From Vairimorpha necatrix (Eukaryota): DNA of 64,000 bases. A program made the translations under genes and the position numbers. Within the stretch, counting starts at the first letter, position 1; the number at the start of each line of letters is the position of its first letter. Where the stretch lies: the NCBI GenBank assembly GCA_036630325.1, contig CP142727.1, positions 248,001 through 312,000 of the forward strand, read 5' to 3'. The notes beneath the pieces were generated by a model, which saw nothing but the letters and a program-made list of their open reading frames with translations, was not told where the DNA came from and searched no databases. Below are positions 6,050 to 50,186 of this stretch, piece by piece.

Positions 6050-7287
6050 GGTTAAGTTCTCGACTTACCCCCCCCCCCCCACCCCTAAAAAAAATAAAAA
6101 AGGGGGAAAAAATAAAAAAAAATAAAAAAAGGGGAAAAAATAAAAAAAAATAAAAAAACGTTTAATTCTCGACTTAACCCCCCTTACCCCCCCCCCCAAA
6201 AAAAAAAAAAAACAAAAAAACTATTCCACAATTGTAAAGTCTATTTCAGGAACAATATCATAAGCTACAATACTAAAATTACCTATTTGAAAAAATTCTA
6301 ACATTTTATCTAATAGATTTTCACGATATATTAATTTGAATCTGTTAATGTAAATCTTTCTTACAAGATTCATAATAGTACCATGACTAGTTCCGCCTTT
6401 TCTTAGTTCTCTTTTAATAACCGACCACATTCCCTCTATAGTCTGAGTATGCGCACCAGTTATATTATCAACAAAATTTTGGCTGTGATTCACAGTCAAA
6501 TGTAGATACTCATATTCTGCACAGATTGTTTGAATATCACTATATCCACGCCAACAATCTGTCACAATTGTGGTCCCCGGAGCAATTTTTCTTGTAATTA
6601 ATTCAACAAGAGTAGCTCTTGTTCTATTTTCTACGATCTCAAAGAAAAAAGAATTTGCATCCCCTCTCACAACGCCTCCAACTGCCCATACTTGATATTG
6701 AAGAACCCTTCCCGCATGGTTTTTACTTTTTACAAGTAAAGTTTCATCAATTTCAACAATACAACCGACGCCGCCAATCGTTTGATTGTTTATATATGTT
6801 GAATAAGAGACGTACACGGCGTTATTAAAACGCGTAAACCATCTTGATACCGTACATTTACCTATATCAAGTTCTAACGTGGCGGCCAAATTACTTGAAC
6901 CCTTTACCCATTCGCAAAGCAATATTAAAAGATCCTCAATAGGCAATTTTGAGTTCTTAAAAACGCTTTGTTTCATTATGGTTCCTTTGTTAGAACATTT
7001 TTTACCATCACGTCTTGAATAACAACGATAGTTTTCAGTGTTGGTCCGATTTTGAGTCATTGGTATATTGCATTTATTGCACATAGGGACCCTCAAAATG
7101 TTTTTTGCAATTAAAAATTGCATTAACTCATTTTTTTTATAGATGAGTTTTCTAAATTCTTTAATTCTCATTATGGGTCAAATTTTTTATTTTTTTTATT
7201 TTTTCCCCTTTTTTTATTTTTTTTTATTTTTTCCCCTTTTTTTATTTTTTTTAGGGGTGGGGGGGGGGGTAAGTCGAGAACTTAACC
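6050..7287 (-). mobile_element. complete Merlin (IS1016/ISXO2-like) DNA transposon
   Basis: ~105-110 bp TIRs starting GGTTAAGTTCTCGACTTACCCC; 8-bp TSD ATATTTAT at 6042-6049 and 7288-7295. Confidence 0.95.
6221..7171 (-). CDS. Merlin DDE transposase, uninterrupted ORF
   Basis: CxxC...C zinc motif, VEIDET, IVTDCWRGY, VNHSQNFV and HTQTIEGMWS motifs. Confidence 0.92.
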   Translation of the reverse strand: MRIKEFRKLIYKKNELMQFLIAKNILRVPMCNKCNIPMTQNRTNTENYRCYSRRDGKKCSNKGTIMKQSVFKNSKLPIEDLLILLCEWVKGSSNLAATLELDIGKCTVSRWFTRFNNAVYVSYSTYINNQTIGGVGCIVEIDETLLVKSKNHAGRVLQYQVWAVGGVVRGDANSFFFEIVENRTRATLVELITRKIAPGTTIVTDCWRGYSDIQTICAEYEYLHLTVNHSQNFVDNITGAHTQTIEGMWSVIKRELRKGGTSHGTIMNLVRKIYINRFKLIYRENLLDKMLEFFQIGNFSIVAYDIVPEIDFTIVE

Positions 7288-8742: not shown

Positions 8743-8814
8743 GGACACATAGCTCAACGGCAGAGCGTCGGTCTACGGAACCGAAGGTTGAGGGTTCGAA
8801 TCCCTTTGTGTTCG
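8743..8814 (+). tRNA. tRNA-Arg(ACG)
   Basis: Acceptor GGACACA/TGTGTTC, anticodon arm TCGGT-CTACGGA-ACCGA, T arm GAGGG-TTCGAAT-CCCTT, then an oligo-T terminator. Confidence 0.95.
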
Positions 8815-20329: not shown

Positions 20330-20675
20330 GCATCTTCCTTATCGTATCCTCGTCGTCGTTCCGTAGTGATGGACTCTAGAGTCTAGAAAACAATAGATTG
20401 GATGTATGTTTCAAAGTAAGGTTAATTTACAGCTTCCTGATGTACTTTCGGTGGTTTTGGTCACCACTCAATCCCTCTCGTTACATAAGGACCTATTCTT
20501 GTCTGGGATTTATGAATACAAACCATTTCATTTGCAAAGGGCTATAATTTCGTAGTTTTCAGTTCGACTATAGTAGGTCGATCTTGATTGGTTATACCAA
20601 CTTCAACTACTAAAATTTAATTCTTCATCTTATCAAACACAAGAATGTCAGGCTTCTTATGAGTAAACTTTATAT
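20330..20675 (-). mobile_element. decayed RLE non-LTR retrotransposon 3' fragment
   Basis: Minus-strand translation gives KKPDILVFDK..ILVVEVGITNQD (PD-(D/E)xK-like) and ETYIQSIV..TLESITTERRRG, with stops. Confidence 0.7.
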
Positions 20676-20878
20676 AAAATGTCACCGTTCGGAGCGGACG
20701 CCAGGGAAAATGCTTATTTGAGAAGGGTAAAAAATTAAAAAAAAAATTACCCGTTCGGAGCGGACGCCAGGGAAAATGCTTACTTGAGAAGGGTAAAAAA
20801 TTTAAAAAAAAATTGGTGTTTATTTGTAATTTGTATTTAAAATTTCTTTAATTTTAAGGGCATGAAAATAAAATTGAA

Positions 20879-23800
20879 TGTGTTTATTTTCCATAATGAG
20901 GGGTAAAAATAATAAGGATATATAACATCCCCCCTCCAAGACGGTAGTCTCATACTAGAACTCATTAATCCCAAGCAGACCTTTTAAATCATAATGTCGC
21001 TTTTTCACGATCCTACCATTTTCCAAACTAACTAAGTACGAGTCACCTCCGCAAACTTCCTTGATAACACCATATCCTAAAAACCTTCCTTTCTCATACT
21101 TACTACAACCCGATAAGTTCTCTTTCTTCGCTACCCTAACTCTCTGACCTTTATAGAATTTCTCTCTTTTGCGAGCCACAAACCTCCTACTATAAAATCC
21201 TTCAGGTCCATTCTCGATCATAACATGGCCCGTTTCGTCTCTTGAGGCCTCAAACGGTGTACATCTCAACCCTTCATGATAGCTGTTATTATAACGCCAT
21301 ATACATCTATTAACCTTGGCTTCAAAATCCACAGCATCATCTTTCAATATTCCTTCTCTTATGGTTCCTATTACCCTTTCCACTCTTCCATTACTTCTAT
21401 GACTTTCTACGCTTACTTTCCTATGTAATACATTTTCCTCTGAACACCAATTCCTCATATATTCATTACTAAATTCTTTACCGTTGTCAGTAATTATTTC
21501 TACCGGTTTCATTCCTGATCCACACAACTGTTTTAAAAATCCTACAACCGAGCTTCCGCGTTTGTCCTCTATTACTTTTCCCCAAACGATCCTAGTATAA
21601 TAATCAATCACGACCAACACATATTTCCCTAAATCTCTAAACTCAATCAAATCCAAAGCAACCTTTTCCAAATAAAATCTTGAACTAACAAAATCACAAC
21701 CACCACTCTTTTTCCTATTATATATTTGGCAAACTTCACACTTCTTTAAAACATCCTCGATATCCTTCTTCATACCCGGCCAATAAAATTCAAACTTCAT
21801 TGCATAGTACACTGATCCTAAACTTCTATGTCCCAAATTTTCATGAGCATTGACAATTAAACCTTCACGCAATTCTTTCTTTGGAATCTCCGCTTCTCTA
21901 CCAGAGTCAAATACCCAAATGTCTTCCCATCAACAACTTTAACATGCTTGTCCCATTTACCCTGTGCCTGTTTAATACTTCTCTCCTTATTCATTAGCGT
22001 TTTCTCATTTTCATGTACCCTACTCAGTGCATCTGCTACAACCATGGTACTAGGCTCTCTATATTCAATGCTAAAGTCGAACTCTTGAATCTTTTCAATC
22101 CACCTGTTAATCCTATTATTGTTAAATGCTGGTTTATTTCTAATCTCGATCAATGCCTTATGATCAGTTTCTACCCTAAATCTTCTTCCGCGTAGTTCAT
22201 ATTCAAACTTTTTAATTCCCCAAAAGACTGCATACATCTCCTTCTCACTGATTCCATATCTCGTTTCCGTAGGCGTAAACTTTTTTGATGCCCACTGTAC
22301 TGGTACCCAATTACCTTGATCATCTTCCTGCATTAAAACAGCACCCATTCCAACATTACTCGCATCCGTGCGTAACAAAAATTCCTTATTATAATTAACA
22401 ATTGCTAAACCTATTAAATCCCTAATCACTTCCCTTAAACTAATATACTCTTTTTCCATTTCTTCTGTCCATTTCCAATTACTTCCTCGTCCTTTAAGAG
22501 AATCCGTCAACGCCAATGTACGTTTTGCATAATTATCAATATGATTTCTAAACCATCCAGCCAGCCCAAGAAACTTCCTAACATCTGATACACACTCCGG
22601 TTTGGGAAATTCTAACGCTTCATTTTGCTTTATTTCAGATGGCAGTATCTCCTTGCCATTAACTGTTACTCCTAACAACATCACCTCTCGTTTACATAAT
22701 TGAACCTTAGCCAAATTAATTTTCATACTATTCTCCTCTAATATATCCACAGCCTCTTTCAACAATTTGTCGTGACCCTCTCTTGTCTTACTATGAATCA
22801 CAATATCGTCCATATAAATTTCGATTCCCTTACCAATAAATTTTTCAAAAATCCCATTCATTATTCTTTGTAATATCTGCGGTGAGTTTTTAAACCCCAT
22901 GACCATCGAATTCCACTCGTATACCTTTTTATTAAACTCAAAAGCCGTCTTAAACCTATCCTTCTCTTCAATCTCAATACTATAAAACCCCTCCTTTAGA
23001 TCTATCACGGTAAAAAATTCAGATCCCTGTGTACTTCTAATAACATCTCTTATCCTAGTTAACTCATAAGGATCCTTCTCTACAATGTCATTAAGAGCAA
23101 TTAAATTACTTACTAATCTTATATCACCATTCGGTTTCTTAATCGCTCTAATGGGATTTCTCCAGTCAGATGTCGACCTTCTAATTATCTTTCTTCTTTC
23201 CAAACTATTAATATAATCTTCCGTCTTCTTCAACAAAGCCTGAGCTATAGCCTGCCCTTTTTTAACAACTTTCTTGCCTTCTTGAGTCTTGATAATACAT
23301 TTTTCAACCTTACAAAAACTAATATCTTCATCCTCTCTTCCTCCTACCCGTGAAATAATCTCCTCTAAATACGCGATGCCTCTTACATCCCTTCTCAACA
23401 GAACTCTCTTATTATTGTCCCTTTTGCTATAATCTTGTATATCCCCTAAATTTTTCTTCTTACGTTTCCCACCATCAACATTATAATAATCACATTTGTC
23501 CGAATTGGAATCGTCATCACATTTACCCTCTAAGTCTAATTGCACTTTACATTTACCAACATAATTAAAACTACTTTTATTTCTTCTGTCTTCAGAATCT
23601 CGCCCCATTCCCCTACAAAATCTAACACTATGGCCTAACTTCCCACAATTGTAGCAACGCATATTCTTTTTATTTTCCTCACGAGACAACTTATTCTTCT
23701 CCTCAAATTTAGCCCATAACGCTAGGGACAACTCTTCAAATTCTTTTTTTCTCACTTGTTCCTTTTCCTCCTGAATAGCTAGCAACTCTAATTTTTCCTC

Positions 23801-24061
23801 AATTTCCTTCCAACTACCCTCTTGCGATATCCTCTCAACAATAAAATTTCTCAATAAAATAGAACCTCTCCTAAAAATTTCTAATTTAAATCCACACTCA
23901 TCAATTTTCTCTAAAAACAACTCATAAACAATCCTTTTAACCTCTTTTAATAATATTATAGCCTCTTGGCCACGGTCCTCCTTTGTAGACCCATTTTCTG
24001 GTATCGCCCCCATGTGTTTATTTTCCATAATGAGGGGTAAAAATAATAAGGATATATAACA
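20879..24061 (-). mobile_element. Ty3/Gypsy LTR retrotransposon A with 49-bp LTRs
   Basis: Identical TG..CA LTRs at 20879-20927 and 24013-24061; TSD TTGAA; PBS TGGGGGCGATACC; PPT GGAGGGGGGA. Confidence 0.95.
20955..24028 (-). pseudogene. gag-RT-RNaseH-integrase of element A, one frameshift near 21925
   Basis: CYNCGKLGHSVRFC, YMDD, RTDAS/EKEM/TDHKAL/ADALSR, HHCC and DDE integrase motifs. Adding one base restores GKDIWVFDSGR. Confidence 0.85.
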
Positions 24062-25603
24062 TTGAATAACAATGAAAGACAAAAAGTTTTTGTCTTTTTA
24101 CAGACTGGTATTGTAATAGACATAATACAATTTAATAAAGAAAATTATGCAAAGAAGGGATAATGATATTATAATAGAAAAAATAAGTACTAGAGATCTA
24201 AGGTTGCTTGGTAATGAATAAAGTACTAAAAATTTTGTTTATTTTATTTTTCTCCTTTTTTCAATATTCCCTCCCATTATTATAAAAAAATAGCAAAAAT
24301 TTATCCCTCAAAAAATCGAGACAAAACTTTGGTTATCATTTAAGGCGAACATTTATTTGCTCTTATTTTTTGGTTCGATCCTCACTGAAGAGTTTTTTTT
24401 TAATTTTTTACCCCTGGCGTTCGCTCCGAACTGTGACATAAAATGTTACTAAATAAAGATTTAAATATCTAAAAATATAAAAAATATTATTCACAATAAT
24501 GCTTTAAATCTTCTTTGACTCTCAATCCTCCTAATCATATGGGGAGTCAAATATATCTCTGGAAGGTTATATGTCCTACATCTAATAGGTATAGATTCTT
24601 TAAATGACCTTCAATCCCCTTCAAAAGTGTTTGTACGGACACCTGTTTCGATATTTAAAAATGTTTAACTATGATTCGATGTTTAATGGTGCTTATAATG
24701 ATATTCTTTCCGGGTTTTATAGGCCCTCCACATAACAGAATGAACGAGATCCAAAATTACATGCATAAATAAGAACGGAAGCAATGCATCCTTGTTTGCT
24801 TTTTAAAGTCATAAAAATATTCTTTAATCTTCAGTTCTTTGCACCATTTCGAACACCAAAAACTTTAAATCAGCGTCCTCTATGGTATTTAATTTTTCCA
24901 ATCTTACTTTCGTATATCTCTAAGACAATTTCCTTGCCTTCTTTCTGCCCTAGGTTATTCAACTGTCTTAAAAAAATTTTATTTTTACAATTTTTAAGGT
25001 ATAACTAATGTTTTATGCGTTATAATCCAATATTCTTGAGATATGCGCCATTTAAAGTTCCGAATTTTAAAAATAAAAAATTTTAAACAAAATAATATAA
25101 TCTTTGTTATCATTTTAAAATAGAGAATTATTCTAAATTGAAAATCTGCGTTTGCAAGAAGGAAACTTTCTTTTAAATTAAACTATTTCCTTTGGTAATT
25201 TGGCTGCATTAGAACCACATATTGCACATTTCTGTTAATAATTTCTTGCTTAATAGACGTTCATATATGTCTTCTTTCTGTATTACTCAGCAATTCTTTT
25301 ATTTTTTTTTTAGAAAATGAACGATTTTTTAAAAATTCTGATACTGTGATTTTTTACACTATGCTGATTATTGCCCGTTGACAGCAAAATTTCTTTTGAC
25401 ATGTAGCAAAAAAACAATTCTATTATTGTTCTTAAAGATCAATAAGTATTACTAAAAAACGAATTTTAACAAAAATGTGAGAATAATAAATGATTACATA
25501 TCATGATTTTGCATAGAATAAACCAGCCGATTTGATTAAATGTCATTAATCAATGTCATATATCAAAAAACGTCCTTTATATTTTTTATCAAAAAAGATG
25601 CCC

Positions 25604-29599: not shown

Positions 29600-29840
29600 C
29601 TCCATTGACGCGCACTCTCTCTGGTCACACTCCCTTCTAGCTATCTCTACTATGTTCTTAGTTGCAGATCCTCCTTCGGCGAAGTCCTGCCGGTGTTCAA
29701 AAGAGATGCTCTTGAGTGTCTTTTAATAGAACTCAATTGGGTGTAAGCTTCGGTACTGGTCGATAGGCCGATGGAATTAACATAATTACTGTGGTATGTT
29801 AGCACAATTCCGACCCATGTCATGACATATGGGGTTATTT
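29600..29840 (-). mobile_element. decayed RLE non-LTR 3' fragment
   Basis: Reverse translation gives ITPYVMTW and a TEAY...LKDTQEHL-like segment. Confidence 0.5.
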
Positions 29841-30536
29841 GAATTTATAGATAAAAAATAATATGTGATAATTCCGAAACATTGTTTCAGAATCATAATG
29901 TTTCAGATGTCAAGAAGACCATTCTTAGTCGCCAGGACTATCAGCCGTATAGAGGAAAATATTTAAAAAATTGTTTTTTTGTCAGATTTGTTTTGTATAA
30001 ATAATAACAAACTACATACTTATCTTAAATTTTTCATAACTATAACGAGTGTTTTGTCATTACAATAATACATTTATCACCTTTTGTATTTTTTTCAATC
30101 ACATATCATGATACGTATTTCATAGTGTATAAATTTTCATAGTATTTTATTATTTAAAAAATAGCACTAATCCACTAATAAGTTCCACTTTTGGCTTTTT
30201 ACAGCGTCGTTTATTATAATCATTTGCCGCTTGCGTTTGTCAACCTATAGTAATGTTTTACTTTTTTTATTTACCTTTTTTACAAATCTCCTTTTTTTAC
30301 ACATTTTTTGGGTAAATTATAATTTAACACACTAAAAAAATTAATAATTTCATAATATATCATTTACTATTTGTTTGGTATCCTCTGAGAATACAGAAAT
30401 ATAGCGGCTAATTATATATAAATTCTAAATATATGATATGTGTACTCAAATAAGAACTCGTAATTATCAAACCTCCTTTATGATATTTTGAGTAAATGAA
30501 AAAATATGTATAAAAAAATTTCAAAAATAATACCCC

Positions 30537-31358
30537 ATGTTTCTAGCAGCAATTATTTTTATATTAAAAATAGCAGCCAACAACGAAGCTTTGATATTTA
30601 TTGATAATAATGAAGAAGAATGCACGATTTTTTTAGGAGGTAATCTTAAATATAAACCAGGATATTACATTTTGAGTTTATTGGAAAATACTTATAGTAT
30701 GGAACCCCGATTAGAAGGTTCGATTAGAGACCCTATAGCGGTTGCATTTCCTGGCCTGCCTTTTGCATTTGTTCCTTTTGAAATAGATGAGATTTTTTTA
30801 AATAATTTTGATGCAACTTTTAATAACATAGATGAGAAAATCAAAGAAAAGTTTTTAAAATCGAATATTTTTTATAGACTTACTTTTCAATATAACAAAC
30901 ATAGTACATATGCCATACAGTTATTATATCTTAAAACTAGAGATATAGTCAATAAGTTTTGGAGATCAGAAACTTTCGAAATAGAAAAGGGGGATAAATC
31001 TAAACTATTGCCTTTAAACATAGAATCATCTAAAACATTCGAATTTTATAAAGTTAAAATTCCAGAAAGTTGGCAAGAACATTTTCATCATACTAACTAC
31101 AATAACGTTTATGTTCTAAATTACGAAAAAAGCCAACAAAAATTAGGTGAGTCAAATAGCCCGAATATTACTCAAGAAAAAGGGAAGGAAAGTAGCACAA
31201 CAAGTCAATCAGAAGAAGTTTTACATGAAAAAAATGAAAATGCTCCTAACGAGAATCGACCTATTGGAAATAGTGTGTTACTTATATTGGCATGTTTTCT
31301 TCTTTGCATTTCAATTTTTATTTCATACTTGATACTAAGTAAAATCAGAAGAGCTTAA
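30537..31358 (+). CDS. type-I membrane protein family X, copy 1 (short stalk)
   Basis: Signal peptide, ~190-aa domain, S/T/E linker, TM, KIRRA tail; CCCCATG start context. Confidence 0.85.
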   Translation: MFLAAIIFILKIAANNEALIFIDNNEEECTIFLGGNLKYKPGYYILSLLENTYSMEPRLEGSIRDPIAVAFPGLPFAFVPFEIDEIFLNNFDATFNNIDEKIKEKFLKSNIFYRLTFQYNKHSTYAIQLLYLKTRDIVNKFWRSETFEIEKGDKSKLLPLNIESSKTFEFYKVKIPESWQEHFHHTNYNNVYVLNYEKSQQKLGESNSPNITQEKGKESSTTSQSEEVLHEKNENAPNENRPIGNSVLLILACFLLCISIFISYLILSKIRRA

Positions 31359-31476
31359 ATAAAGATTTTATCTTTTTTACTATATTATTTTTTTATTTAT
31401 AAAAAATACTATCTGCCTTTTACTATTTCTACATTAGGTTTATATAAAAAAAAATCTTAGTATAAGTAAATAACTG

Positions 31477-32130
31477 GGTACATGACCGTTTGGAACCCGC
31501 TTTGGGGAAATGAACCCGTATTGAAATTTTAAAGGACCCCCTTTAAAAAAAATGGCAAAATTGGCAAAAACAATGTTTGTTGAGGCAGATGAGGTTTTTA
31601 GTGATGAAATGTACTCATACATGGAATATAAAGAAAAGTTTATTTTGGAAACATTTGATGCTGAAGCGGCGTCGCCTTGCTCGTTTCTGTAACTAGTAGA
31701 AATACTGCTTTTTCCTTGAGGTAATACAAGAAAATGTATAACCTGTTTCTATTATGATCTCTAATCAATGGGTAGCATATGATGCCACATTAGCTAAGCA
31801 AAGGGATGGAGCACAGTACTAAGAAACACTCCATAAATGCTGTAACCTCTAGCGATTCTGAGTCACAACACCATATAATTTAGTTGGTTTTGGCTCGTTT
31901 CTATAAGAGATATTCGATCTTAACATAAACAAAGAAGAACACTATGAGTACCTTTTACAGTTTCACTGGGCTTTCCAAATTCCCAAAAATCACCGGATAA
32001 ATTGTCTTCTGTCATTATTTAAAATAAATCGTTAAGTCCCTTTTTTATTATTTTTTTTATTTTTCCCTTTTTTTGAATTTTTTTAATGCGGGTTCATTTC
32101 CCCAATGCGGGTTCCAAACGGTCATGTACC
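31477..32130. mobile_element. non-autonomous TIR element (GG termini, probably Merlin-type)
   Basis: ~45-bp TIR GGTACATGACCGTTTGGAACCCGC(T/A)TTGGGGAAATGAACCCG; no TSD recovered. Confidence 0.75.
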
Positions 32131-33047
32131 ACTACATCGATAGATTAATCAAGCTGAAAAGAGAAATACATACAATTTCTTAAGTCTTTATCTAATTTTG
32201 ATTCTAAATTATTAGCAATTAATTCTATTCTTCTATATGCAGTTCTAGCTGATAACTGCAACATATTAATAGCTTTTAAAATTTCTGTCTTGTTTTCAAA
32301 ATCTTCAAAAAGAGAATCCGCCGCTGTTATCATAGCCTCTTTTATAATTTCTGCATCAGTAAAGGGTTTTTTTCTTAGCCAACAGATGTGCAACTTTTAG
32401 TGAAGCTACAGTGGCCGCCTTTGAAAGCTCTTTTGGCTTTGTAAAACATCTCTGCTGTTTTACAATTGCTGATTTAAAAGATATCAACTTACTTTTTCGC
32501 AGTTCGGACTTCAGTAAGTATTCAATATTTATATTTTCATGCAAACTATTGAAGTGTCGTTCTAAGTTACTTTTTTTGCATATTGCAATGCTTTTGTTGC
32601 AAAGAAACAAATACACCTACCTTGAAATTCTATAAAGAAAAAATCTTCTTTCCATAAATTATTGAATTGATAATTTCTTCTTTTTTTTGAAAGTTCCTTA
32701 AAGGTGCAAAAAAAATTTGTAATAAATTTTGAAAATTTATTGAACGTTGCATTAGCATGTTTTATGGCATAATTATTGTCAAAATAAATTTTAAAGAACT
32801 TTATAATTGGAATAAATAATTTTATTGTTATAATCATCATATGTAAGGAAATTTTTGTTGAAAGGTCTTTTTGCTTAACGAAAAGTAGATTAACTCCTTA
32901 TAATGTGCTCCTAATATTTAGCATTAAAAATGTAATTGATCAAATTTTTTTCAAAAAATTGAAATTATAAATTTTTAAACTTCTTCTCAATATGAAAAAT
33001 GAAAACGGGCGCACCTGCGCCCGCGGGCGCTTCGTTGCCGACCTCTG
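32131..33047 (-). mobile_element. truncated hAT (Buster/SPIN/Charlie-like) transposon with frameshifted transposase
   Basis: End CAGAGGTCGGCAACGAAGCGCCCGCGGGCGC; fragments CNKSIAICKKSNLERHF, KKPFTDAEIIKE, QLSARTAYRRI and FSFQLD. Confidence 0.85.
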
Positions 33048-33099
33048 AGCTAAAGGATTGTCCGGCATTTGAGTGCATCCACATAGAACCCCATTAGGT

Positions 33100-33900
33100 C
33101 AGAGGTAAGCGATAAGAGTCAACCCCAAAGTGCTTTTGAGTAAAACCGGAAAGGAAGAAACTGTATCGACGTTTACTGTCCCGGTCGCTTCAATCAAAGC
33201 ATCTTTCAGTGACATGGGAATTTGTAATGACAAGGGGAAACTTAACAGAAGTAAAAAAAAAAGAGTTTTACCCACATCCTTTAATACAAAAATTACATGA
33301 TCCACCCGTATTTACAAACTTTGAATTGGAGTTAAAATACCTACAGCTAAATACCTGGGGGAAAGGCAGAGAACAGATACCTCACAAAAAAGGGGGAAAA
33401 AAAATTAAAGGAGCAGTATGCTACCGGAACTTATAAATAGAAATTTTAGCATTATTAAAATATAATGGAAGGGGGAAAGACTCCGACGAAAAAGAAATGC
33501 TTCGTTATACATCTATCGCTTACTCGCGGAAGAAACCAAGAAATGAAAAGAAAAAAGTTAAAGACAATGTGGAATTAAGTGTTCATAGAGTTCGGGACGT
33601 AGTACGAAAGCGAAAACCACCGATAAACATTCATAAGAAAGAAATTGACAAAATGGAAAAGTCATATACTATCCCTACGGTTGGAATATAGGGAGTCTAT
33701 AAATTATATAACCTAAATAACGACGCATTCGCTATTAACTGGAAGTACTTGAAGACGCGTCAACAAATGGTAGTCTAGGAGCCTCATAAGAAGGGGGAGT
33801 GTCAAGTGACAGATCTCCAGTGGTCCTAAGATTACCCTGGAGACTAGAGAATACTATTCTATAAGTATTCTCCTCCTTTACCAAACTATGTTTATGGAGG
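33100..33900 (+). mobile_element. decayed Gypsy-like integrase C-terminus, PPT and start of 3' LTR
   Basis: RDVVRKRKP...SYTIPTVG.GVYKL...INWKYLK (GPY/F-like); purine tract 33788-33799 followed by TGTCAAG. Confidence 0.5.
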
Positions 33901-34487
33901 GAAAATGTATCATATTTTCCCGCCTATAAATATAAAAGAAAATCATACCCATGGGGGTATGAAGATGAGTAGAAACAATAAATATTCTATGTTTAAATCG
34001 CCTTCTCGGACAGATGGGAACCCATCAGTCCACAGTAATGTTTTCATTATTTTTATGCTGTTTAAAACAGATTTTAGATTTTTTTATGATTATTTTTACT
34101 ATGTATAAAATATTAGTATTTTTGTTATTTTATTAGTTTTTTTAGACCAACGAAGATTCAAAATCTTATATTTATGTTCTTTAAATCATTCAAATGTATT
34201 ATATCACATAAAAATTGTAAACTAGCGTCAATAAACTGCTATACTATTAGTTTCATGAATTAATATTAAAATATGACTTTACTTATTTTTAAATTATAAC
34301 ATAAATATTTAGTTGCGTTGAATGTTTATTGTATATATTCAAAACTATTTCTTATTATAAACAGATAAACCATAATAAGTACAGATTTAATCAAGTATAT
34401 AGTAAAATAAAGAAACAAAAAGAAATTGAAAAATGAAAAAATAAATTGTTTTTTTTAGTTATTTTCTTGTTTTATTAAATTTTTTTT

Positions 34488-35597
34488 GGTTAAGTTGCGA
34501 TGTTACCCCCCCCCCCCCTACTAAAAAAATAAAAAAAAAGGTGAAAAAATAAAAAAGGAATAAAATTATACCTCTAAAATGAACATCAAGAATTTTAGAA
34601 AATTAATATATAAGAAAGAGAAATTAATTATATTTCTTCTTGAAAAAAATATATTAAAGGCACCGATGTGCAATAAGTGCATGAAACCCATGACCAAAAT
34701 TAAAAATAATTTGGACAAATATCGTTGTTACTTACGACGAAATGGGACAAAATGCTCAAACAAAGGTAACGTTTACAAACAAAGCATTTTTAAAAGTTCT
34801 AAATTAGATATCGAAGATCTTTTAATTTTGCTGTGTGAATGGATTGAAGGCGTAAGCAATGTTTCGGCTACTATCGAATTAAATATAGATAGTAGTACCG
34901 TATCTCGCTGGTTTACGCGTTTTAATAACGCTGTATTCTTATCCTATTTCAACTACATAAAAAACAAAACCATAAGAGGTTTAAATTACATGGTTGAAAT
35001 AGACGTGACATTGCTTGTTAAAAGTAAAAACCAAAACAGTAGAATTCTTCAATAAAAGTTTAGGCTGTTGGTGGAGTAGTAAGAGGAGACAGCAATTCTT
35101 TTTTTTCGAAATTGTTGAAAATCGATCAAGAACTACTCTTGTCGATTTAATTAAACGAAAAATTGCACCCGGTTTTACAATTATTACTGATTGTTTGCGA
35201 GGTTATATAGGGGGTTCGGAACTATGTCCGGATTATAACTATTTACATTTAACTGTAAATCATAGCCAAAATTTTGTAAATGCAACAACAGGCGCCTACA
35301 CCCAAACAATTGAGGGAATGTGGTCTGTAATTGAAAGGAAAATTCCGCAAAGAAGGAATTTGCCATGGTTCTTTAATGAATCTAATTCGAAAACTTTATA
35401 TAGCTCGTTTTAAGTTAATTTATAGAGAATCACTACTTGAAAAAATGTTCAGCTTTTTTAAAATTAATAATATATCATTATCAAATTACGATTTTAGCGC
35501 CCGAATTTAATTTTAAATTAATTGAATTAATTTTGTTGTCTTTTTCCCCTTTTTTATTTTTTTTGGGTGGTGGGGGAGGTTACATCGCAACTTAACT
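34488..35597 (+). mobile_element. degenerate Merlin transposon
   Basis: TIR GGTTAAGTTGCGATGTTACCCC / GGTTACATCGCAACTTAAC; frameshifted transposase similar to 6221-7171. Confidence 0.88.
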
Positions 35598-35599
35598 GT

Positions 35600-35790
35600 T
35601 GATAGATATGTGTAAACAGTATTCTCAGAGTTAAAAGGCGTTTTGCATCTTAGAACAGATTCTTTTGTGCTTTCAAATTCTTTGGCCGATTGTATTGGTA
35701 TTCTTTTACCCTTATGTTCTTTGCATTGATGCCTTCTCTCAAGTTCGGCTCAGGAGAGATGTAATCTTTCTTTAGTTGCGGTCTTAAACT
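35600..35790 (-). mobile_element. decayed internal fragment of non-LTR retrotransposon (also at 41985-42175)
   Basis: Reverse translation ATKERLHLS*AEL.. resembles the ERLYLPR..LGRGL motif downstream of RT. Confidence 0.4.
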
Positions 35791-36504
35791 ATCTTTTATA
35801 AACTATGTCAATGCATTAAAAAATGTATTTGTATTTGATTAAAAAACATTTTTTTAGAATGAACATGTTTCAGATGTCAGGAAGACCATTCTTAGTCCCC
35901 AGGACTATCAGCCGTATAGAGGAAAATATTTAAAAAATTGTTTTTTTGTCAGATTTGTTTGGTATAAATAATAACAAACTACATACTTATCTTAAATTTT
36001 TCATAACTATAAACGAGTGTTTTGTCATTACAATAATACATTTATCACCTTTTGTATTTTTTTCAATCACATATCATGATACGTATTTCATAGTGTATAA
36101 ATTTTCATAGTATTTTATTATTTAAAAAATAGCACTAATCCACTAATAAGTTCCACTTTTGGCTTTTTACAGCGTCGTTTATTATAACCATATGCCGTTT
36201 GTGTTTGTCAACCTATAGTAATGTTTTCCTATATCAATTTACCTTTTTTACAAATCTCCTTTTTTACACATTTTTTCGGGTAAATTATAATTTAACACAC
36301 TAAAAAAATTAATAATTTCATAATATATCATTTACTATTTGTTTGGTATCCTCTGAGAATACAGAAATATAGCGGCTAATTATATATAAATTCTAAATAT
36401 ATGATATGTGTACTCAAATAAGAACTCGTAATTATCAAACTTCCTTTATGATATTTTGAGTAAATGAGAAAATATGTATAAAAAAATTTCAAAAATAATA
36501 CCCC

Positions 36505-37413
36505 ATGTTTCTAGCAGCAATTATTTTTATATTAAAAATAGCAGCCAACAACGAAGCTTTGATATTTATTGATAATAATGAAGAAGAATGCACGATTTTT
36601 TTAGGAGGTAATCTTAAATATGAACCAGGATATTACGTTTTGAGTTTGTGGGAAAATACTTATAGTATAGAACCCCGATTTGAAGGTTCGATTAAAGACC
36701 CTATAGCGGTTGCATTTCCTGACCTGTCTTTTGCATTTGTTCCTTTTGAAATAGATGAGATTTTTTTAAATAATTTTGATGCAACTTTTAATAACATAGA
36801 TAAGAACATCAAAGAAAAGTTTTTAAAATCGAATATTTTTTATAGACTTACTTTTCAATATAACAAACATAGTACATATGCCATACAGTTATTATATTCT
36901 AAAACTAGAGATATAGTCAATAAATTTTGGAGATCAGAAACTTTCGAAATAGAAAAGGGGGATAAATCTAAACTATTGCCTTTAAACATAGAATCATCTG
37001 AAACACTCGAATTTTTAAAAATTAAAATTCCAGAAAGTTGGCAAGAACATTTTCATCTTATCAACTGCTATACCGTTTATGTTCTAAATTACGAAAAAAG
37101 CCAACAAAATTTAGGAGAGTCAAATAGCCCGTTTATTACTCAAGAAAACCCAGAAAGCTCTAGCATAACAAGTAGACCAGAAAAGGAAGAAAGCGAAAGC
37201 TCTAGCATAACAAGTAGCTCAGAAGAAGAAAGCGGAAGCTCTGTCAAAATAAGTGAATCTGAAAAAGTTGAAGTTTTACATGAAAAAAATGAAAATGGCC
37301 CCAACGAGAATCAATCTAAGGCAAATAATGTGTTGATTATATTGACATGTTCTCTTATTTGCGTTTCAATTTTCATCTCATGGCTGATACTAAGTAAAAT
37401 CAGAAGTGCATAA
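36505..37413 (+). CDS. type-I membrane protein family X, copy 2
   Basis: Paralog of 30537 and 44202; intermediate S/E-rich stalk. Confidence 0.85.
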   Translation: MFLAAIIFILKIAANNEALIFIDNNEEECTIFLGGNLKYEPGYYVLSLWENTYSIEPRFEGSIKDPIAVAFPDLSFAFVPFEIDEIFLNNFDATFNNIDKNIKEKFLKSNIFYRLTFQYNKHSTYAIQLLYSKTRDIVNKFWRSETFEIEKGDKSKLLPLNIESSETLEFLKIKIPESWQEHFHLINCYTVYVLNYEKSQQNLGESNSPFITQENPESSSITSRPEKEESESSSITSSSEEESGSSVKISESEKVEVLHEKNENGPNENQSKANNVLIILTCSLICVSIFISWLILSKIRSA

Positions 37414-38834
37414 ATAAAGGTCTTTTTTCTTATTAAGTTAATTTTTCTTTTTGAACAAAAAAATAATATCAGTTTTCAAACTTTAGCTAAACGTAGCACA
37501 TTTAAAAATGTTTAATTACATTAATAGTAAGTAGTTGTTGTAAACGAGTGTATAACTTATAAGAATAATACATCAACAAAAAAAAACTTTTGTGGTTACT
37601 ATTTGTATTCACAAGTAAAAATTGCCATTGAAGTATTACCTATAAGAGCTGTAACAAAGCTTTAACAATTCGTAGTGGTTGAATTTGTTTCGATAAATCT
37701 ATACTCTAGTGTATCTATAAACATATTACCAGCATAAACCTAGCCCGACTGAGTGTATAAAATGTCATTCAAAGAGTAAGTCGCTTTAGTGAATTAAATT
37801 GTGAAGTTTGACAGGCACGGTTTAGACTGATCTAAGTGCTGGGAATATTGAAATATTGAACTTGAGATATAAATGAATATTTAGTTTTTTAAATTTCATG
37901 TATATGCATTTTATATACTTTAATATTGAATATGGATCTTATAAAATAATGAAACCCCGTCTTTGTGATTTACATCTAGTTGAAAAAATGCTTCCAAGAT
38001 TAAAATAATGTAGAATTAATCTTTTGAATGCACATAGCCACTTGTCGGTGCACAACGAAGCAAAATCCTTGGCAATATCAAGACATCAAACGAAGTTGAG
38101 CAATAGAAGGTCTCGTGGACCATATCCTACAAGATTTTGTAACACGGTAGCTGAAACTAGCGAGAGATTGGTTGTAAACTATAACACAAAATGCAGAATT
38201 AGTGATGTGGCGGTGTAAGGAGCCGTGTGTGCAATACAGATGATTTTAGGGACTTTTGAGTTAGTACGATGATGTATCCTCGGCCTATAACCGCCGTGGT
38301 TGTATTATTTTTGCTAATATATCTTATGGAAGAAGATATGGACATAGGTGATAACTGATTTGCTTTTCGCCAATATTCAAATTGTGCGGCTAAGCTTCAA
38401 CAAGTGTTATTATTTGTAAAATTTTTTAAAGTGAAAATCTTAAAGTATCGCAAAGAAGATATCACAATCTAAGTAATTGAAATCATATGTAAGAAGGTTC
38501 CCTTTCTCTTTAGCAAGAAATAATGGATTTTGAAGCAAAGTAAGGGTATTCGTCATTCTTAGCTGGCTTGATTGCCTGTCTTCTCTCAGCTCCATTTTAC
38601 ATTTAAGATGGGGCTTTTTTATTTTTCAAAGTCTTTCCACATTTGACGATAATAAAATAGGTTCCATTGTGCAGGTAAATCAATTATATTATTATTTTAT
38701 CTTATTATATTTAATTTTTTATATATTTTAAGATGACAAATTACTTATAACCGAAGTTTACAGAAGGTTATAAAGTCATTTTCAAATCTTATAAACATAT
38801 TTACTCTTTATATTTTTTCTTATCCCTCCAGTAA

Positions 38835-39785
38835 ATGTTTTTTTTTAATTTTCTACACGTATTAATTTCTTGTTCTTCTCATATTCCAAATTTCGAACAA
38901 GTTCTTTATTCTTCAATTCTCTGTAGGTTAAAATTTACCACCAGACATCTTACTGACACTTCTATAAATGACATTTGTGAAGATATAAGAAAAAATATAC
39001 CTTTCGATTTGGATATCCTTCATTATGGTGCATATTATGATTTACATCTTATAATAAGCAATAACCAAGATAATTTGATATTAATTATTTATTTTAATGA
39101 GTTATTTGTGTACATCTCGAAAGAATGTGCTAATAATAATAGTTCAAGTACTGAACAGAAGCATAATACAGACGAAAATGCTACTAATAGTACAGAAGAT
39201 CTTCTTATAAATGTGCCCACTGATTATCTCCTGTCATTTCTTAAATGTAAATATTTTTTACAGAACAAAATAAAACATGAAGATTTAAAATTCGTCAACC
39301 TCAAATTGTTAATGTTTCTACGACTAAAATATTCGTCTATTCTCGATCTTAAACTGTCTATCCCAGAATTCCACAATTTATTATTTTACATTTACACGAT
39401 ACAATTCATTACCGACCCGGAAATAATCTTTGATACTCTTATTAATTTTTCGATAACTTATTATATTTTAATTAATAACGACAATATTAAAAATAATATT
39501 AATTATATCTATTATTTAATAGAGAAAATAATGAATAATGTGATACCACTGACATATCTTATGACGAATTTTCAAGAACTAAAAAGTGCTATGATGAGCG
39601 CAGACAGCGAAGATATTTATAAAATACGAAGTTATGGAATTATATTGTTTTTTGAGAGTATACAGTTTAACAAATGTAGGAAATTGGGCATGCCTTGGAA
39701 TTTGATAAGTCAAATAACTATAAAAGAAAGTGATAAATCTAAAATATTAGACAAACTAGAAAAATTAATGGATATATTTTATTAA
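38835..39785 (+). CDS. putative secreted hypothetical protein Y, copy 1
   Basis: 316-aa ORF, signal-like N-terminus, CCC before ATG; near-identical copy at 50187. Confidence 0.8.
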   Translation: MFFFNFLHVLISCSSHIPNFEQVLYSSILCRLKFTTRHLTDTSINDICEDIRKNIPFDLDILHYGAYYDLHLIISNNQDNLILIIYFNELFVYISKECANNNSSSTEQKHNTDENATNSTEDLLINVPTDYLLSFLKCKYFLQNKIKHEDLKFVNLKLLMFLRLKYSSILDLKLSIPEFHNLLFYIYTIQFITDPEIIFDTLINFSITYYILINNDNIKNNINYIYYLIEKIMNNVIPLTYLMTNFQELKSAMMSADSEDIYKIRSYGIILFFESIQFNKCRKLGMPWNLISQITIKESDKSKILDKLEKLMDIFY

Positions 39786-40864
39786 AGTCTAAGTAAATAT
39801 CAAATATAGTTTTAATTAATTAAATGAACCGCATCTGTCAAATACTACGCTGTAATTAGTTATTAAGAATTTATAAATTTTTAGAATCTACAGTTAAAAT
39901 TTTAAGTTGGCGTTCAAATATAAAAAAATATCTTAAGCGTTATCGCCGCTTGAGGAGCATGGATTTCCTTCATAGCTAAATAGGTATTTTTTTGACGTGA
40001 AAATAAAATTTTAATTATGATTGTTGACGTCAGCCGAAAATGTTTTTTTTTATTTGCAAGTAAGAGGTAAGTAACATCTTACATAGAAGAAGAAATGCTT
40101 GGAAATATCTTTATCCAATCGGTACTATGAGATTCTTACTCACTAAAACTTCCTTCATATAATTTGCCGGTGCATCAAGCTCCGCTGTATTATTGGGCTT
40201 TGGCTCCAGGAGAACACTTTCCATTTATACCTAAAATCGCATACAGAGTGACCCCACAGCGGATATACTTATTGGGCATGGGTATCTAAACCCCGAGGAA
40301 TGACATCATACTAACTCAAGGGTCCCTACAATCATCTTAATTGCACACACGGCTCCTTACACGGCCACATCACAGCCTGACAATTATTATTGTCTACGTT
40401 GATCATCAGTCTTTCACTTGTTTCGACCACCGCGTTACAGAATCTTGAAGGAAAGGGTCCACGAGACCTTCTATTGCCCCACTTTCTATTCTCTTAGTAA
40501 GCTCTAGAGTGCACCAGCAATGGGTTTAACGGGCTGCTTCCATTAGATACTTTTATGTATCATTAAGTCACCACAAGGGTGGTACTGTTTTCGCCCTTAA
40601 GCTGCGTTTCTATACTAGATTCTATTTGTGACTGGACACACACAAATATCATTGAATCAACTAAATGACTATCGTAACATTTTTCATCATCCGAGTTGAC
40701 CCGACTGCATCATAAAAGTATGACTTTTTTTATGTTTTGTGAATCTATATTTAATCCAGCCAAATAAAATACAATATCTTCATTTTTTATATGTGTTTAT
40801 ATTCTTTATTTTACTGTTTAGCCGCAGACTGATGATTCTTTATCCTCTTCTAGTTTTTAAATTT

Positions 40865-41982
40865 AGTTTAAATTGCGATGTTACTCCAACCCCCCCCCAC
40901 CCCTAAAAAAATAAAAAAAGGGGGAAAAAATAAAAAAGGTTTAAAAAATGCCCCAAAAATGAATAAAAAGAATTTTAGAACATTAATATATAAAAAAGAA
41001 AAAAAATTAATTATATTTCTTCTTGAAAAAAATATATTAAAGGTACCAATGTGCAATAAGTGCATGGCACCCATGACCAAAATTAGAAATAATTTGGACA
41101 AATATCGTTGTTACTATCGACGAAATGGGAGAAAATGCTAAAACAAAGGTAATATTTACAAAGAAAGCATTTTTAAAAGTTCTAGATTAGATATCGAAGA
41201 TCTTTTAAAAATGCTGTGTGAATGGGTTAAAGGTGTAAGCAATGTTTCGGCTACTATCGAATTGGATATAGATAGTAGTACCGTATCTCGCTGGTTTACG
41301 CGTTTTAATAACGCTGTATTCTTATCCTATTTCAACTACATAAAAAACAAAACCATAAGAGGTTTCAATTACATGGTTAAAATAGACGAGACATTGCTTG
41401 TTAAAAGTAAAAACCAAAACGTTAGAATTCTTCAATACCAAGTTTAGGCTGTTGGTAGAGTAGTAAGAGGAGACAGCAATTCTTTTTTTTCGAAATTGTT
41501 GAAAATCGATCAAGAACTACTCTTGTCGATTTAATTAAACGAAAAATTGCACCCGGTTTTACAATTATTACTGATTGTTTGCGAGGTTATATAGGGGGTT
41601 CGGAACTATGTCCGGATTATAACTATTTACATTTAACTGTAAATCATAGCCAAAATTTTGTAAATGCAACAACAGGCGCCTACACCCAAACAATTGAGGG
41701 AATGTGGTCTGTAATTAAAAGGAAAATTCCGCAAAGAAGGAATTTGCCATGGTTCTTTAATGAATCTAATTCGAAAACTTTATATAGCTCGTTTTAAGTT
41801 AATTTATAGAGAATCACTACTTGAAAAAATGTTCAACTTTTTTAAAATTAATAGTATATCATTTTTAAATTACGATTTTAGCGCCCGAATTTAATTTTAA
41901 ATTATATTTAATTAATTTTGTTGTCTTTTTACCCTTTTTTATTTTTTTTGGGTGGTGGGGGAGGTTACATCGCAACTTAACT
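40865..41982 (+). mobile_element. degenerate Merlin transposon at duplication junction
   Basis: Same family as 34488-35597, with the same right flank but a different left flank; multiple frameshifts and stops. Confidence 0.85.
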
Positions 41983-42190
41983 GTTGATAGATATGTGTAA
42001 ACAGTATTCTCAGAGTTAAAAGGCGTTTTGCATCTTAGAACAGATTCTTTTGTGCTTTCAAATTCTTTGGCCGATTGTATTGGTATTCTTTTACCCTTAT
42101 GTTCTTTACATTGATGCCTTCTCTCAAGTTCGGCTTAGGAGAGATGTAATCTTTCTTTAGTTGCGGTCTTAAACTATCTTTTATAAACTA

Positions 42191-50064: not shown

Positions 50065-50186
50065 TTTTCTTTTTATATTTTAAGATGACAGATTACTTAT
50101 AACCAAAGTTTACAGAAGGTTATAAAGTCATTCAAAAATCTTATAAACATATTTACTCTTTATATTTTTTCTTATCCCTCCAGTAA

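Follow-up and report, generated by a model that had tools for sequence, protein, structure and literature searches.

A microsporidian Ty3/gypsy retrotransposon lineage without an aspartic protease, compacted to about 3.2 kb

The stretch of Vairimorpha necatrix DNA analyzed here (64,000 nucleotides, positions 248,001 to 312,000 of contig CP142727.1; hereafter the window) contains two LTR retrotransposons of the same family. Element 1 lies on the minus strand and has the following features, given in window coordinates.

20879-24061, minus: element 1 as a whole, 3183 bp including LTRs
24062-24066: upstream copy of the target site duplication (TSD), TTCAA on the element strand, same 5-mer as at 20874-20878
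20874-20878: downstream TSD copy, same 5-mer as at 24062-24066
24013-24061, minus: 5' LTR, 49 nt, TG..CA, 49/49 identical to 20879-20927
20879-20927, minus: 3' LTR, 49/49 identical to the 5' LTR
24000-24012, minus: putative primer-binding site TGGGGGCGATACC, directly after the CA of the LTR, codons M-G-A-I-P
21857-24028, minus: first ORF, 723 aa, Gag-CCHC-linker-RT-RNase H plus an out-of-frame tail past the frameshift
23657-24028, minus: miniature helical Gag, residues 1-124 (AF2 helices)
23615-23656, minus: single CCHC knuckle, residues 125-138 (Pfam zf-CCHC)
23354-23614, minus: charged, predicted disordered linker, residues 139-225, in the usual position of a protease
22079-23353, minus: RT and RNase H, residues ~226-650 (Pfam RVT_1, RT_RNaseH, RT_RNaseH_2)
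21920-21926 (near 21923), minus: frameshift breaking the element (tblastn of P0001, frame change at element nt 2139)
20955-21923, minus: integrase in the shifted frame, with HHCC, DDE core and C-terminal SH3-like parts (Pfam Integrase_H2C2, rve)
20938-20951, minus: hairpin-capable conserved motif GAGACTACCGTCTT, preceding the polypurine tract
20928-20937, minus: polypurine tract GGAGGGGGGA, abutting the 3' LTR

In the first ORF, Pfam matches run from zf-CCHC (residues 124-138) through RVT_1 (296-456) to RT_RNaseH (520-650), and the frameshift falls within the integrase N-terminal region. An unbroken 1024-aa version of this element, 98% identical, is present in the protein collection (P0001), and by tblastn the integrase of element 1 corresponds to residues 703-1024 of P0001, also at 98%. 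The original prediction had described a protease-less polyprotein at 21857..24028; the ORF found there is as described, but it is just the first one of element 1. Element 2 lies on the plus strand and is organized in the same way.

46847-50064, plus: element 2 as a whole, 3218 bp including LTRs
46842-46846: upstream TSD copy, TTTTC
50065-50069: downstream TSD copy
46847-46895, plus: 5' LTR, 49 nt, ATG at LTR position 34, 49/49 identical to 50016-50064
50016-50064, plus: 3' LTR, 49/49 identical to the 5' LTR
46896-46908, plus: putative primer-binding site TGGGGGCGATACC within the ORF, same 13 nt as in element 1
46880-48826, plus: first ORF, 648 aa, Gag-CCHC-linker-RT-RNase H
47282-47326, plus: CCHC knuckle, residues 135-149 (Pfam)
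48805-48811 (near 48808), plus: frame break beside a T run (tblastn frame change, element nt ~1962)
48808-49992, plus: integrase part (Pfam Integrase_H2C2, rve; tblastn)
49991-50015, plus: hairpin-capable conserved motif and polypurine tract, GAGGGGGGA(T)
38515-38918, plus: paralogous empty site, insertion point ~38718

The lengths of 3183 and 3218 bp agree with the total of ~3.2 kb estimated before. RT, RNase H and integrase had been called complete in both copies; all these domains are indeed present, but each copy carries one frameshift and neither is a single open frame. In element 2 the break sits at the RNase H-integrase junction. A programmed frameshift behind both breaks was rejected, since their positions differ and relatives have a single ORF. 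Observations that go beyond the original prediction are the 49-nt LTRs, the overlap of coding sequence with cis signals and the break in either copy.

Both elements are bounded by TG..CA LTRs of 49 nt, 49/49 identical within each pair and 38/49 identical between element 1 and element 2, and by TSDs of 5 bp. A pattern of the LTR 3' half, with 0.01 matches expected, matched four times and at precisely the four LTRs, and the repeats are therefore not due to chance; no solo LTR was found within the window. The 49 nt accommodate a CCC box, an ATG at LTR position 34 and an AATAAA. Directly after the 5' LTR, a putative primer-binding site starting with TGG overlaps the coding sequence in both elements. 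This sequence, which we take to resemble a tRNA-Pro-type primer-binding site, did not match the only tRNA gene in the window (tRNA-Arg, Arg-ACG). At the opposite end, a polypurine tract adjoins the 3' LTR in element 1, element 2 and the related locus L001, and the hairpin-capable motif is almost unchanged in the latter two.

Among host ORFs, 13 of 18 have a CCC within 25 nt of the ATG, vs 8.6% of random 25-mers, and 5' UTRs shorter than 7 nt together with a CCC-like motif are reported in PMC2803860. The CCC box of the LTR would drive host-type transcription, starting a few bases upstream of the ATG; the R region would then comprise just ~15-20 nt, and the rest of the cycle may be an ordinary tRNA-primed LTR cycle.

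Element 2 is a true insertion relative to the paralogous empty site: after removal of the element and one TSD copy, its flanks aligned with that site over 406/406 nt at 95.3% identity (384/403). The insertion postdates a segmental duplication of 95% identity.

As originally predicted, a helical Gag of only ~125-135 residues and a single CCHC knuckle (residues 125-138 and 135-149, respectively) precede RT in the two elements. In the AlphaFold model of residues 1-240 of element 1, helices 16-39, 44-54, 57-66 and 73-122 (pLDDT >90) are followed by the knuckle, pLDDT is below 50 at residues 151-179 and 196-215, and strands are limited to a small hairpin (181-191). The full-length model has no strands between residues 145 and 204; pLDDT is below 50 at residues 141-216 and mostly ~70-93 in RT, RNase H and integrase. 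A beta-rich domain is absent from both models. When PDB and BFVD were searched with the N-terminal model, Foldseek returned no matches at E≤1e-3, the Arc C-lobe appearing only at rank 37, outside that threshold. Protein atlas leads to Retrotrans_gag were all below 0.9, Gag/Arc leads being weak and non-significant, and a two-copy complex prediction of Gag residues 1-145, run without controls, scored 0.00 and is given no weight in either direction. For the RT model, the best-superposing solved structure was Ty3 RT (4ol8_B; E 6e-32, TM 0.76, 27% identity), and the Pol order RVT_1, RT_RNaseH(_2), Integrase_H2C2, rve is of the Ty3/gypsy type.

Conservation within the family differs strongly between regions. 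Knuckle residues C125, C128, H133 and C138 are invariant or almost so across relatives, whereas conservation is lowest in the linker, which has 16% pairwise identity vs 58-64% in RT and RNase H (RT 58%) and differs three-fold in length among members; Gag has 18% and the RNase H-integrase spacer 35%. Between knuckle and RT anchor lie 57-195 aa (n=27, median 81), a stretch that includes ~25 conserved N-terminal residues of RT. The family alignment shows no strongly conserved motif at the junctions. After the knuckle comes a weakly conserved F/S-N-Y-L/V motif, and the linker contains a basic K-R-x-K-K cluster; these could be processing or targeting signals.

Being long, charged and, by prediction, disordered, the Gag-RT linker would be accessible to proteases, and a host enzyme (e.g. 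a Ddi1-type retropepsin or another endopeptidase) might trim such exposed linkers, the RNase H-integrase spacer being likewise poorly conserved. However, the alignment does not reveal a conserved site for such an enzyme, and we regard trimming by the host as improbable.

An element-encoded protease was searched for in several ways. None of the four ORFs of the two elements matched a Pfam protease family at E≤1. A six-frame scan bore out the prediction that the charged linker leads into RT without D(T/S)G: the motif is absent from every frame between knuckle and RT in both elements, and in-frame occurrences are confined to the integrase region; one further case, in element 2, falls in an out-of-frame stretch. 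A protease HMM purpose-built from 20 outgroup segments detected 20/20 held-out outgroup proteases (E 1.6e-8 to 3e-21), but 0/55 family proteins and 0/12 translated element frames (best E 0.88). For 30 family members, 25 Pfam families were listed and no retropepsin family was among them; the only protease family was Peptidase_A17, in 2/30 members at E 0.047. Altogether, AlphaFold, Foldseek, the motif scan and the HMM gave no sign of a retropepsin fold or motif, neither in the linker nor in other frames, the result that would have been expected from the original prediction.

Gag or linker might nevertheless conceal a retropepsin too divergent to be recognized, or a protease belonging to a different class. 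Proteases of retrotransposons are often missed by Pfam (a protease domain was assigned to only 16/65 of the more distant matches P0056-P0120), and two relatives have D[TS]G in the linker (VVDTGNG in P0015, ISDSGSE in P0006). Both cases, however, are isolated and not conserved, located ~25 aa before RT or within a serine-rich run; the HMM that recognized all held-out outgroups found nothing in the family, the linker can be as short as 57 aa with the RT N-terminus included, and neither AF2 model has a folded beta domain there. A protease overlooked in this way is very improbable.

Absence of the protease extends beyond the two copies. Among the 55 best RT-based relatives none had a protease Pfam domain, and the first protease-bearing relative down the match list was P0056, at 35% identity. 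Thus, no protease-bearing master was found among these close relatives, and the 64-kb window contains no protease-bearing element either. In a FastTree phylogeny of the RT-RNase H cut-out (31/122 sequences that did not fit the cut-out were left out), 39 rows (38 relatives and element 1) were separated from 52 rows by a single branch (length 0.61, support 100). Clade members with a species name attached are from Nosema granulosis, Vairimorpha necatrix, V. apis and Enteropsectra breve. A private deletion, which had been considered unlikely because two diverged copies share the absence, does not account for its occurrence across this monophyletic lineage. Judged from the sequences, retropepsin is missing from the whole clade and not just from these two copies, and the lineage is monophyletic and old, with the protease lost clade-wide.

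Gag-only searches for protease-bearing cousins sharing the Gag were uninformative. Residues 1-240 of P0001 matched only themselves, and an N-terminal profile found at longer lengths only P0001 and P0024. Against 1.84 billion representatives the profile gave 8263 matches at E≤0.001, with multi-knuckle CCHC proteins dominating the top 150; single-stretch matches to the full N-terminal region in that search were short fragments of 72-579 aa.

The elements might also be decayed, internally deleted normal elements without biological meaning, as each copy in the window has a frameshift. A scan of prokaryotic genome contigs yielded three related loci, all on mis-binned MAG contigs; two of these (L002, L003) are degenerate and paired LTRs were found in 0/3, the 3' end of L001 being informative. 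Against this view, P0001 and at least 20 other relatives from diverged lineages have uninterrupted ORFs of ~1000 aa with the same architecture, the clade is monophyletic, and the window copies have identical LTR pairs, TSDs and an insertion younger than the duplication. For the family, the relic explanation is refuted and can be given hardly any weight. Identical LTR pairs, TSDs, the empty site and intact ORFs elsewhere suggest that the family is apparently active, although the window copies themselves are frame-broken.

The elements thus almost certainly belong to a microsporidian Ty3/gypsy lineage that lacks an aspartic protease and is compacted to ~3.2 kb. Because there is no element-encoded protease and the Gag:Pol ratio is obligatorily 1:1, the most likely explanation is that the ~1020-aa polyprotein acts uncleaved, as a ribonucleoprotein (probability roughly 0.4). 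It would bind its own RNA via the knuckle and multimerize via the helical Gag, and RT and integrase would be carried within the ribonucleoprotein and not in a matured capsid. The linker, variable in sequence and length and devoid of a strongly conserved junction motif, is consistent with this. Counting against it, the protease is required for transposition in the bench-studied elements Ty1, Ty3 and Tf1.

Second in our order of preference, ahead of the host protease, is dependence on a helper: the protease (perhaps also the capsid) of a co-resident Ty3/gypsy element would be parasitized and the polyprotein cut in trans. Such a protease could be at hand, since Nosema genomes hold several LTR families (3 in N. 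ceranae, 5 in N. apis, 7 in N. antheraeae and 14 in N. bombycis; PMC4202319) and N. bombycis (Nbr) elements are described, second-hand in PMC2474625 after Xu 2006, as Gag-protease-RT-RNase H-integrase. Most A. algerae elements, at 3.6-4.3 kb, likewise have room for a protease (Parisot 2014), and the semi-conserved F/S-N-Y motif after the knuckle might be a site. However, the clade is deep (Gag 18%, RT 58% identity) and covers several named genera and Anncaliia, in all of which a specificity-matched helper would have to persist; the linker offers no well conserved site, and protease-bearing elements are absent both from the window and from the 55 best matches. Helper dependence is therefore unlikely, if less so than trimming by the host.

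Returning to the uncleaved ribonucleoprotein, we tentatively picture a long-lived, mobile clade that does without protease and capsid maturation, in which the polyprotein acts in cis and elements of 3.0-3.2 kb, their LTRs just 38-50 nt long, have signals overlapping the coding sequence; as a whole, this picture is possible but still somewhat doubtful. Retropepsin is regarded as a hallmark of Ty3/gypsy, Ty1/copia, BEL/Pao and retroviruses. A widespread and apparently mobile protease-less lineage would question the need for proteolytic maturation and a closed capsid in LTR retrotransposition, and the 3.2-kb element may offer a natural minimal system for testing what the LTR cycle requires. If the compact ribonucleoprotein reading is true, these would be the smallest protein-coding LTR retrotransposons known to us, and our literature search gave no competing claim; it returned no account of a protease-less microsporidian LTR retrotransposon and no named smallest autonomous element. 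Programs that search for LTRs usually require a length of at least ~100 bp, which LTRs of 38-50 nt do not reach. Family members are, moreover, deposited under misleading names such as 'Tf2-9 polyprotein' and 'krab-a domain-containing protein', even within bacterial MAGs. For both reasons the transposon content of microsporidia is probably under-counted. Promoter, start codon, poly(A) signal, primer-binding site and polypurine tract lie in or against coding sequence, as if the genome compaction of the parasite extended to its own parasites.

Among known systems, Ty3 and Tf1 share with the window elements the RT-RNase H-integrase order, the CCHC knuckle, a polypurine tract and 5-bp TSDs; their tRNA-type primer-binding site has a putative counterpart here, and Tf1 has a single gag-pol ORF. 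Ty3 and Tf1 need their retropepsin and have two-lobed capsid proteins, LTRs of ~340-360 bp and a length near 5 kb, whereas the window elements have no protease, a Gag of ~125 residues, LTRs of 49 nt and a total of 3.2 kb. Reverse transcription without RT being cut from its neighbours is known from foamy-virus PR-RT, the hepadnavirus P protein and LINE ribonucleoproteins, retroelements with a coiled-coil or RNA-binding partner able to act in a ribonucleoprotein. The likeness is one of functional analogy and not of family membership: foamy viruses retain a protease and make use of it, neither LINEs nor hepadnaviruses go through an integrase-LTR cycle, and to our knowledge none of the three is a protease-less LTR retrotransposon. 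Non-autonomous TRIM, LARD and SMART elements lack coding capacity for RT and integrase, both of which the window elements keep in conserved form.

Closer similarities are found within microsporidia, where, in Ty3/gypsy elements specific to the group, a single polyprotein ORF takes the place of separate gag and pol, and in A. algerae families the ORF often starts within the LTR (Parisot 2014). Unlike the window elements, most of these families have LTRs of 105-272 bp besides their greater length (Parisot 2014). A nearer match is 'Aalg retro L' of Anncaliia algerae, a complete consensus of 3127 bp with a 50-bp LTR and an ORF at 32-3049, of which three strains carry 19, 20 and 45 copies (Parisot et al.). 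Its LTR begins alike (TGTTATATAT), has a CCC box ahead of the ATG and ends in ..ACA followed by TGG, its ORF likewise starts within the LTR, and its translation contains a GQE motif, a single CCHC and an F-N-K..S-Y motif, kinship being judged by eye. It differs in genus and in having its AATAAA upstream of the ATG; the AATAAA of the window elements is downstream of the ATG. The main text of Parisot et al. does not mention a protease or discuss the tiny LTR and overlapping signals, and the 3' end of retro L was not found in the supplement. In summary, TG..CA LTRs, 5-bp TSDs, the polypurine tract and the Pol order place the window elements with Ty3/gypsy (Metaviridae), from which they depart by the missing retropepsin, and they share with the retro L type an LTR of ~50 bp, an ORF start inside it and a total length of ~3.1-3.2 kb.

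The two Ty3/gypsy elements of the window contain no retropepsin, and six independent tests agree on this. In the polyprotein, Pfam found the domain order zf-CCHC, RVT_1, RT_RNaseH, RT_RNaseH_2, Integrase_H2C2 and rve, and the four window ORFs had no match to a protease family at E<=1.

20879-24061, minus strand: element 1, LTR retrotransposon
21857-24028, minus strand: first ORF of element 1, within the retrotransposon
46847-50064, plus strand: element 2, diverged second copy
20938-20951 (element 1), 49991-50005 (element 2) and 2699-2713 (L001, a related locus on a mis-binned contig): hairpin-capable motif, just upstream of the PPT
8743-8814, plus strand: tRNA-Arg(ACG), the only tRNA gene in the window

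The original observation that the linker between the single CCHC knuckle and RT holds no D(T/S)G motif was borne out, as no D[TS]G occurs there in any reading frame of either element; the in-frame D[TS]G sequences (FDSG, LDTG) lie in the integrase part. A retropepsin HMM built from 20 protease segments of more distant Ty3/gypsy matches recovered 20/20 held-out proteins (E 1.6e-8 to 3e-21); in the family (the best 55 relatives) and the 12 translated frames of both elements, its best score was only E 0.88 (1.9 bits). When 30 family members were analyzed singly, RVT_1 and RNase H families were present in all 30, rve in 25 and zf-CCHC in 21, and no retropepsin family occurred among the 25 listed of 59 Pfam families, the remaining families being found in at most one member each. 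Peptidase_A17, reported for 2/30 members (E 0.047), was taken as noise from the RT region.

For residues 1-240 of element 1, AlphaFold (28-row alignment) returned a model with mean pLDDT 73, in which helices 16-39, 44-54, 57-66 and 73-122, the last one 50 residues long, all have pLDDT >90 and are followed by the knuckle. Past the knuckle, residues 151-179 and 196-215 fall below 50 and the sole structure is a small hairpin (181-191); helix 218-228 then leads into RT. In the full-length model of P0001, the intact 1024-aa version of element 1 (mean pLDDT 76), confidence stays under 50 across 141-216, and 145-204 is strand-free; RT, RNase H and integrase mostly reach about 70-93. Neither model contains a retropepsin fold in the N-terminus, as anticipated. 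Foldseek of the N-terminal model against PDB and BFVD gave 0 matches at E<=1e-3, the recognisable pieces being retroviral nucleocapsid knuckles only.

The final cysteine of the knuckle and the conserved one at the RT N-terminus lie 57-195 residues apart (n=27, median 81); some 25 of these residues are conserved RT N-terminus, and in most members the span cannot accommodate a retropepsin of ~100 residues. Isolated D[TS]G sequences in the linkers of two relatives (VVDTGNG in P0015, ISDSGSE in P0006) were rejected as protease motifs, being unconserved and badly placed. A protease hidden in the elements is nearly excluded. Two longer relatives, P0026 (1188 aa) and P0043 (1090 aa), have extra length without a protease; their Gag, linker and RNase H-integrase spacer are expanded by coiled-coil and repeat sequence rich in E/K.

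The absence is not a private deletion, in line with what had been proposed: no Pfam protease domain occurs in any of the 55 best matches (E 0 to 3e-83), and the first protease-bearing relative is the next match, P0056 (35% identity), which begins with a DTG protease. Many of the 55 are about 1000-1043 aa long and lie on 3.0-3.3-kb contigs; named relatives come from Nosema granulosis, Vairimorpha necatrix, V. apis and Enteropsectra breve. In a FastTree phylogeny of the RT-RNase H region (91/122 sequences, 403 columns; the other 31, including element 2, were unfit for the cut-out), one branch (length 0.61, support 100) parts 38 family proteins and element 1 from 52 other Ty3/gypsy sequences. Judged from these sequences, protease loss is clade-wide. 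Pairwise identity within the family was 18% in Gag, 16% in the linker, 58% in RT, 64% in RNase H and 47% in integrase, which indicates an old lineage with enzymes under constraint. P0032, P0046, P0055 and L001-L003 were deposited in bacterial MAGs (Clostridium sp., Bacteroidales, Bacilli, Turicibacter sp.), most simply explained by microsporidian DNA contaminating the bins.

Element 2 is a true insertion. Its flanks, joined without the element and with one TSD copy, align to 38515-38918 across all 406 nt (95.3%, 384/403 ungapped columns; junction near 38718), and this paralogous empty site belongs to a segmental duplication inside the window. The alignment sets the whole mobile unit at 3218 bp, leaving no room for longer LTRs and upholding the earlier estimate of ~3.2 kb. 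RT, RNase H and integrase had been called complete; all domains were indeed found by Pfam, but the frame is broken once in each copy: element 1 near 21923, element 2 near 48808, next to a T run. Since the sites differ and relatives are uninterrupted, these breaks are mutations or assembly errors, and a programmed frameshift was rejected on the same grounds. That the elements are dead relics, as the breaks might suggest, can practically be dismissed.

The duplication or triplication spans 29800-46860 with blocks 87-99% identical, and carries paralogous genes for secreted-looking S/T/P/E-rich proteins with 42-nt tandem repeats.

30513-30812 / 36481-36780 / 44178-44477: repeated block, example
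37980-38729 / 46106-46857: repeated block, example
44773-45486, also 37143-37228: 42-nt tandem repeats of the S/T/P/E-rich genes, repeat number varying among copies

Around element 1, inverted GC-rich 28-nt copies (20679-20706 vs 24412-24439, 93% complementary) adjoin a 66-nt tandem duplication (regions 20665-20796, 24373-24439), an arrangement suggesting that the element inserted into a palindromic or MITE-like repeat.

Each element, about 50% identical to the other in protein, is bounded by direct repeats of 49 nt that start with TG, end with CA and are identical within the element (49/49; 38/49 between elements), with a 5-bp TSD on both sides (TTCAA, element 1; TTTTC, element 2). The polyprotein ATG is position 34 of the 5' LTR. 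The LTR ends in the 25-nt pattern CCC(N)CATT-ATG-(NN)AAATAAA(N)ACA, in which a CCC box stands 4 nt ahead of the ATG and AATAAA falls within the first codons; this pattern matches 4 times in the window, exactly at the four LTRs, vs 0.01 expected. Directly 3' of the 5' LTR lies TGGGGGCGATACC in both elements, a putative PBS that starts with TGG and reads M-G-A-I-P. The primer may be a Pro-type tRNA, going by similar PBS sequences; the 3' end of the window's tRNA-Arg(ACG) did not match. In relatives, the N-terminus M-x-x-x-x-M-(A/G) corresponds to the LTR end ..CA plus TGG as codons.

At the other end the 3' LTR begins only 23-27 nt after the stop codon; a PPT (GGAGGGGGGA or GAGGGGGGA) abuts it, and a conserved hairpin-capable motif, GAGACTA(A)CCGTCTT, sits upstream of the PPT in both elements. 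These 14-15 nt, GAGACTA(A/C)CCGTCT(T), could form a 4-bp hairpin and are kept at only ~50% protein identity; non-coding in the window copies, they are translated (G-E-T-x-R-L) in L001 and several relatives, and might serve as an extension of the PPT or as another site of primer contact. Several relatives end in G-E-T-x-R-L-x-G-G, so their ORF continues through motif and PPT. L001 (50% identity) has the same motif and PPT, followed by an apparent 38-nt LTR with CCCC, AATAAA and ATG, its end being deduced, as the contig has a single LTR. The compact cis-architecture is common to relatives.

Host genes use a similar arrangement: CCC stands <=25 nt upstream of the ATG (mostly 4-15 nt) in 13/18 host ORFs and in 8.6% of random 25-mers, counting window ORFs of at least 200 aa and excluding four element ORFs and one antisense ORF.

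3737, 7171, 7985, 15077, 17309, 18912, 61788: CCC-bearing host gene starts, examples

According to Peyretaillade et al. 2009 (PMC2803860), microsporidian 5'UTRs measure <7 nt, a CCC-like motif closely precedes the coding start, and AAUAAA is used stochastically. The CCC near host ATGs is this start signal, copied by the element LTRs. We infer a host-type core promoter within the LTR, and an R region of only about 15-20 nt.

Transcription would start at the CCC box just before the ATG, a tRNA would prime on the in-frame PBS, and R would be very short. The elements possess ordinary LTR-cycle cis parts, a constrained RT-RNase H-integrase and real insertions, without a protease. A single ORF that lacks a protease yields Gag and Pol in a 1:1 ratio, still fused to each other unless something else cuts them. 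Several LTR families coexist in Nosema genomes, which keeps two such cutters live as alternatives: a helper protease from co-resident elements, which is rather unlikely, and a host protease, which is unlikely. Persistence of the lineage across genera, a linker with the lowest conservation and the greatest length variation of any part, and junction motifs without good conservation favour a polyprotein that may act uncleaved, as an RNP, a tentative reading to which we give a probability of roughly 0.4.

Named relatives of the elements and the surrounding genes mark the window as microsporidian DNA of the Nosema/Vairimorpha type. It is AT-rich, with about 22-36% G+C per 2-kb block, mostly near 27%, and the genes around the elements are of ordinary eukaryotic kinds; they encode an HMG box protein, a triose-phosphate transporter, a HECT ligase, an Rpb3-like subunit and a Merlin/IS1595 transposase (6221-7171, minus strand; DDE_Tnp_IS1595, E 1.5e-13). 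Beside the latter, C-run/A-run sequence (CCCCCCCCCACCCC TAAAAAAA...) at 6072-6178 recurs at 34507-34585 and 40890-40968; such sequences could represent the ends of transposons.

Parisot et al. 2014 (PMC4202319) reported three Ty3/gypsy groups that are specific to microsporidia and encode the polyprotein in one ORF; in their Table S1, 'Aalg retro L' is entered as a complete element (50-bp LTR, ORF 32-3049, 3127 bp), and the word 'protease' is absent from their main text. For Nosema bombycis, elements that include a protease (Gag-protease-RT-RNase H-integrase) are attributed to Xu et al. 2006 in the summary given by a 2008 paper (PMC2474625). In the literature searched, no paper was found that describes an LTR retrotransposon lineage lacking a protease, or LTRs this small in a coding element. 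The family is therefore catalogued and, as far as could be seen, its defining oddities are undescribed. The opening lines of the 'Aalg retro L' consensus (PMC4202319) agree with our elements in how the LTR starts, in the CCC-ATG arrangement and in having TGG after ..ACA. Among solved structures, the P0001 model superposes best on the reverse transcriptase of Ty3 (4ol8_B, E 6e-32, TM 0.76).
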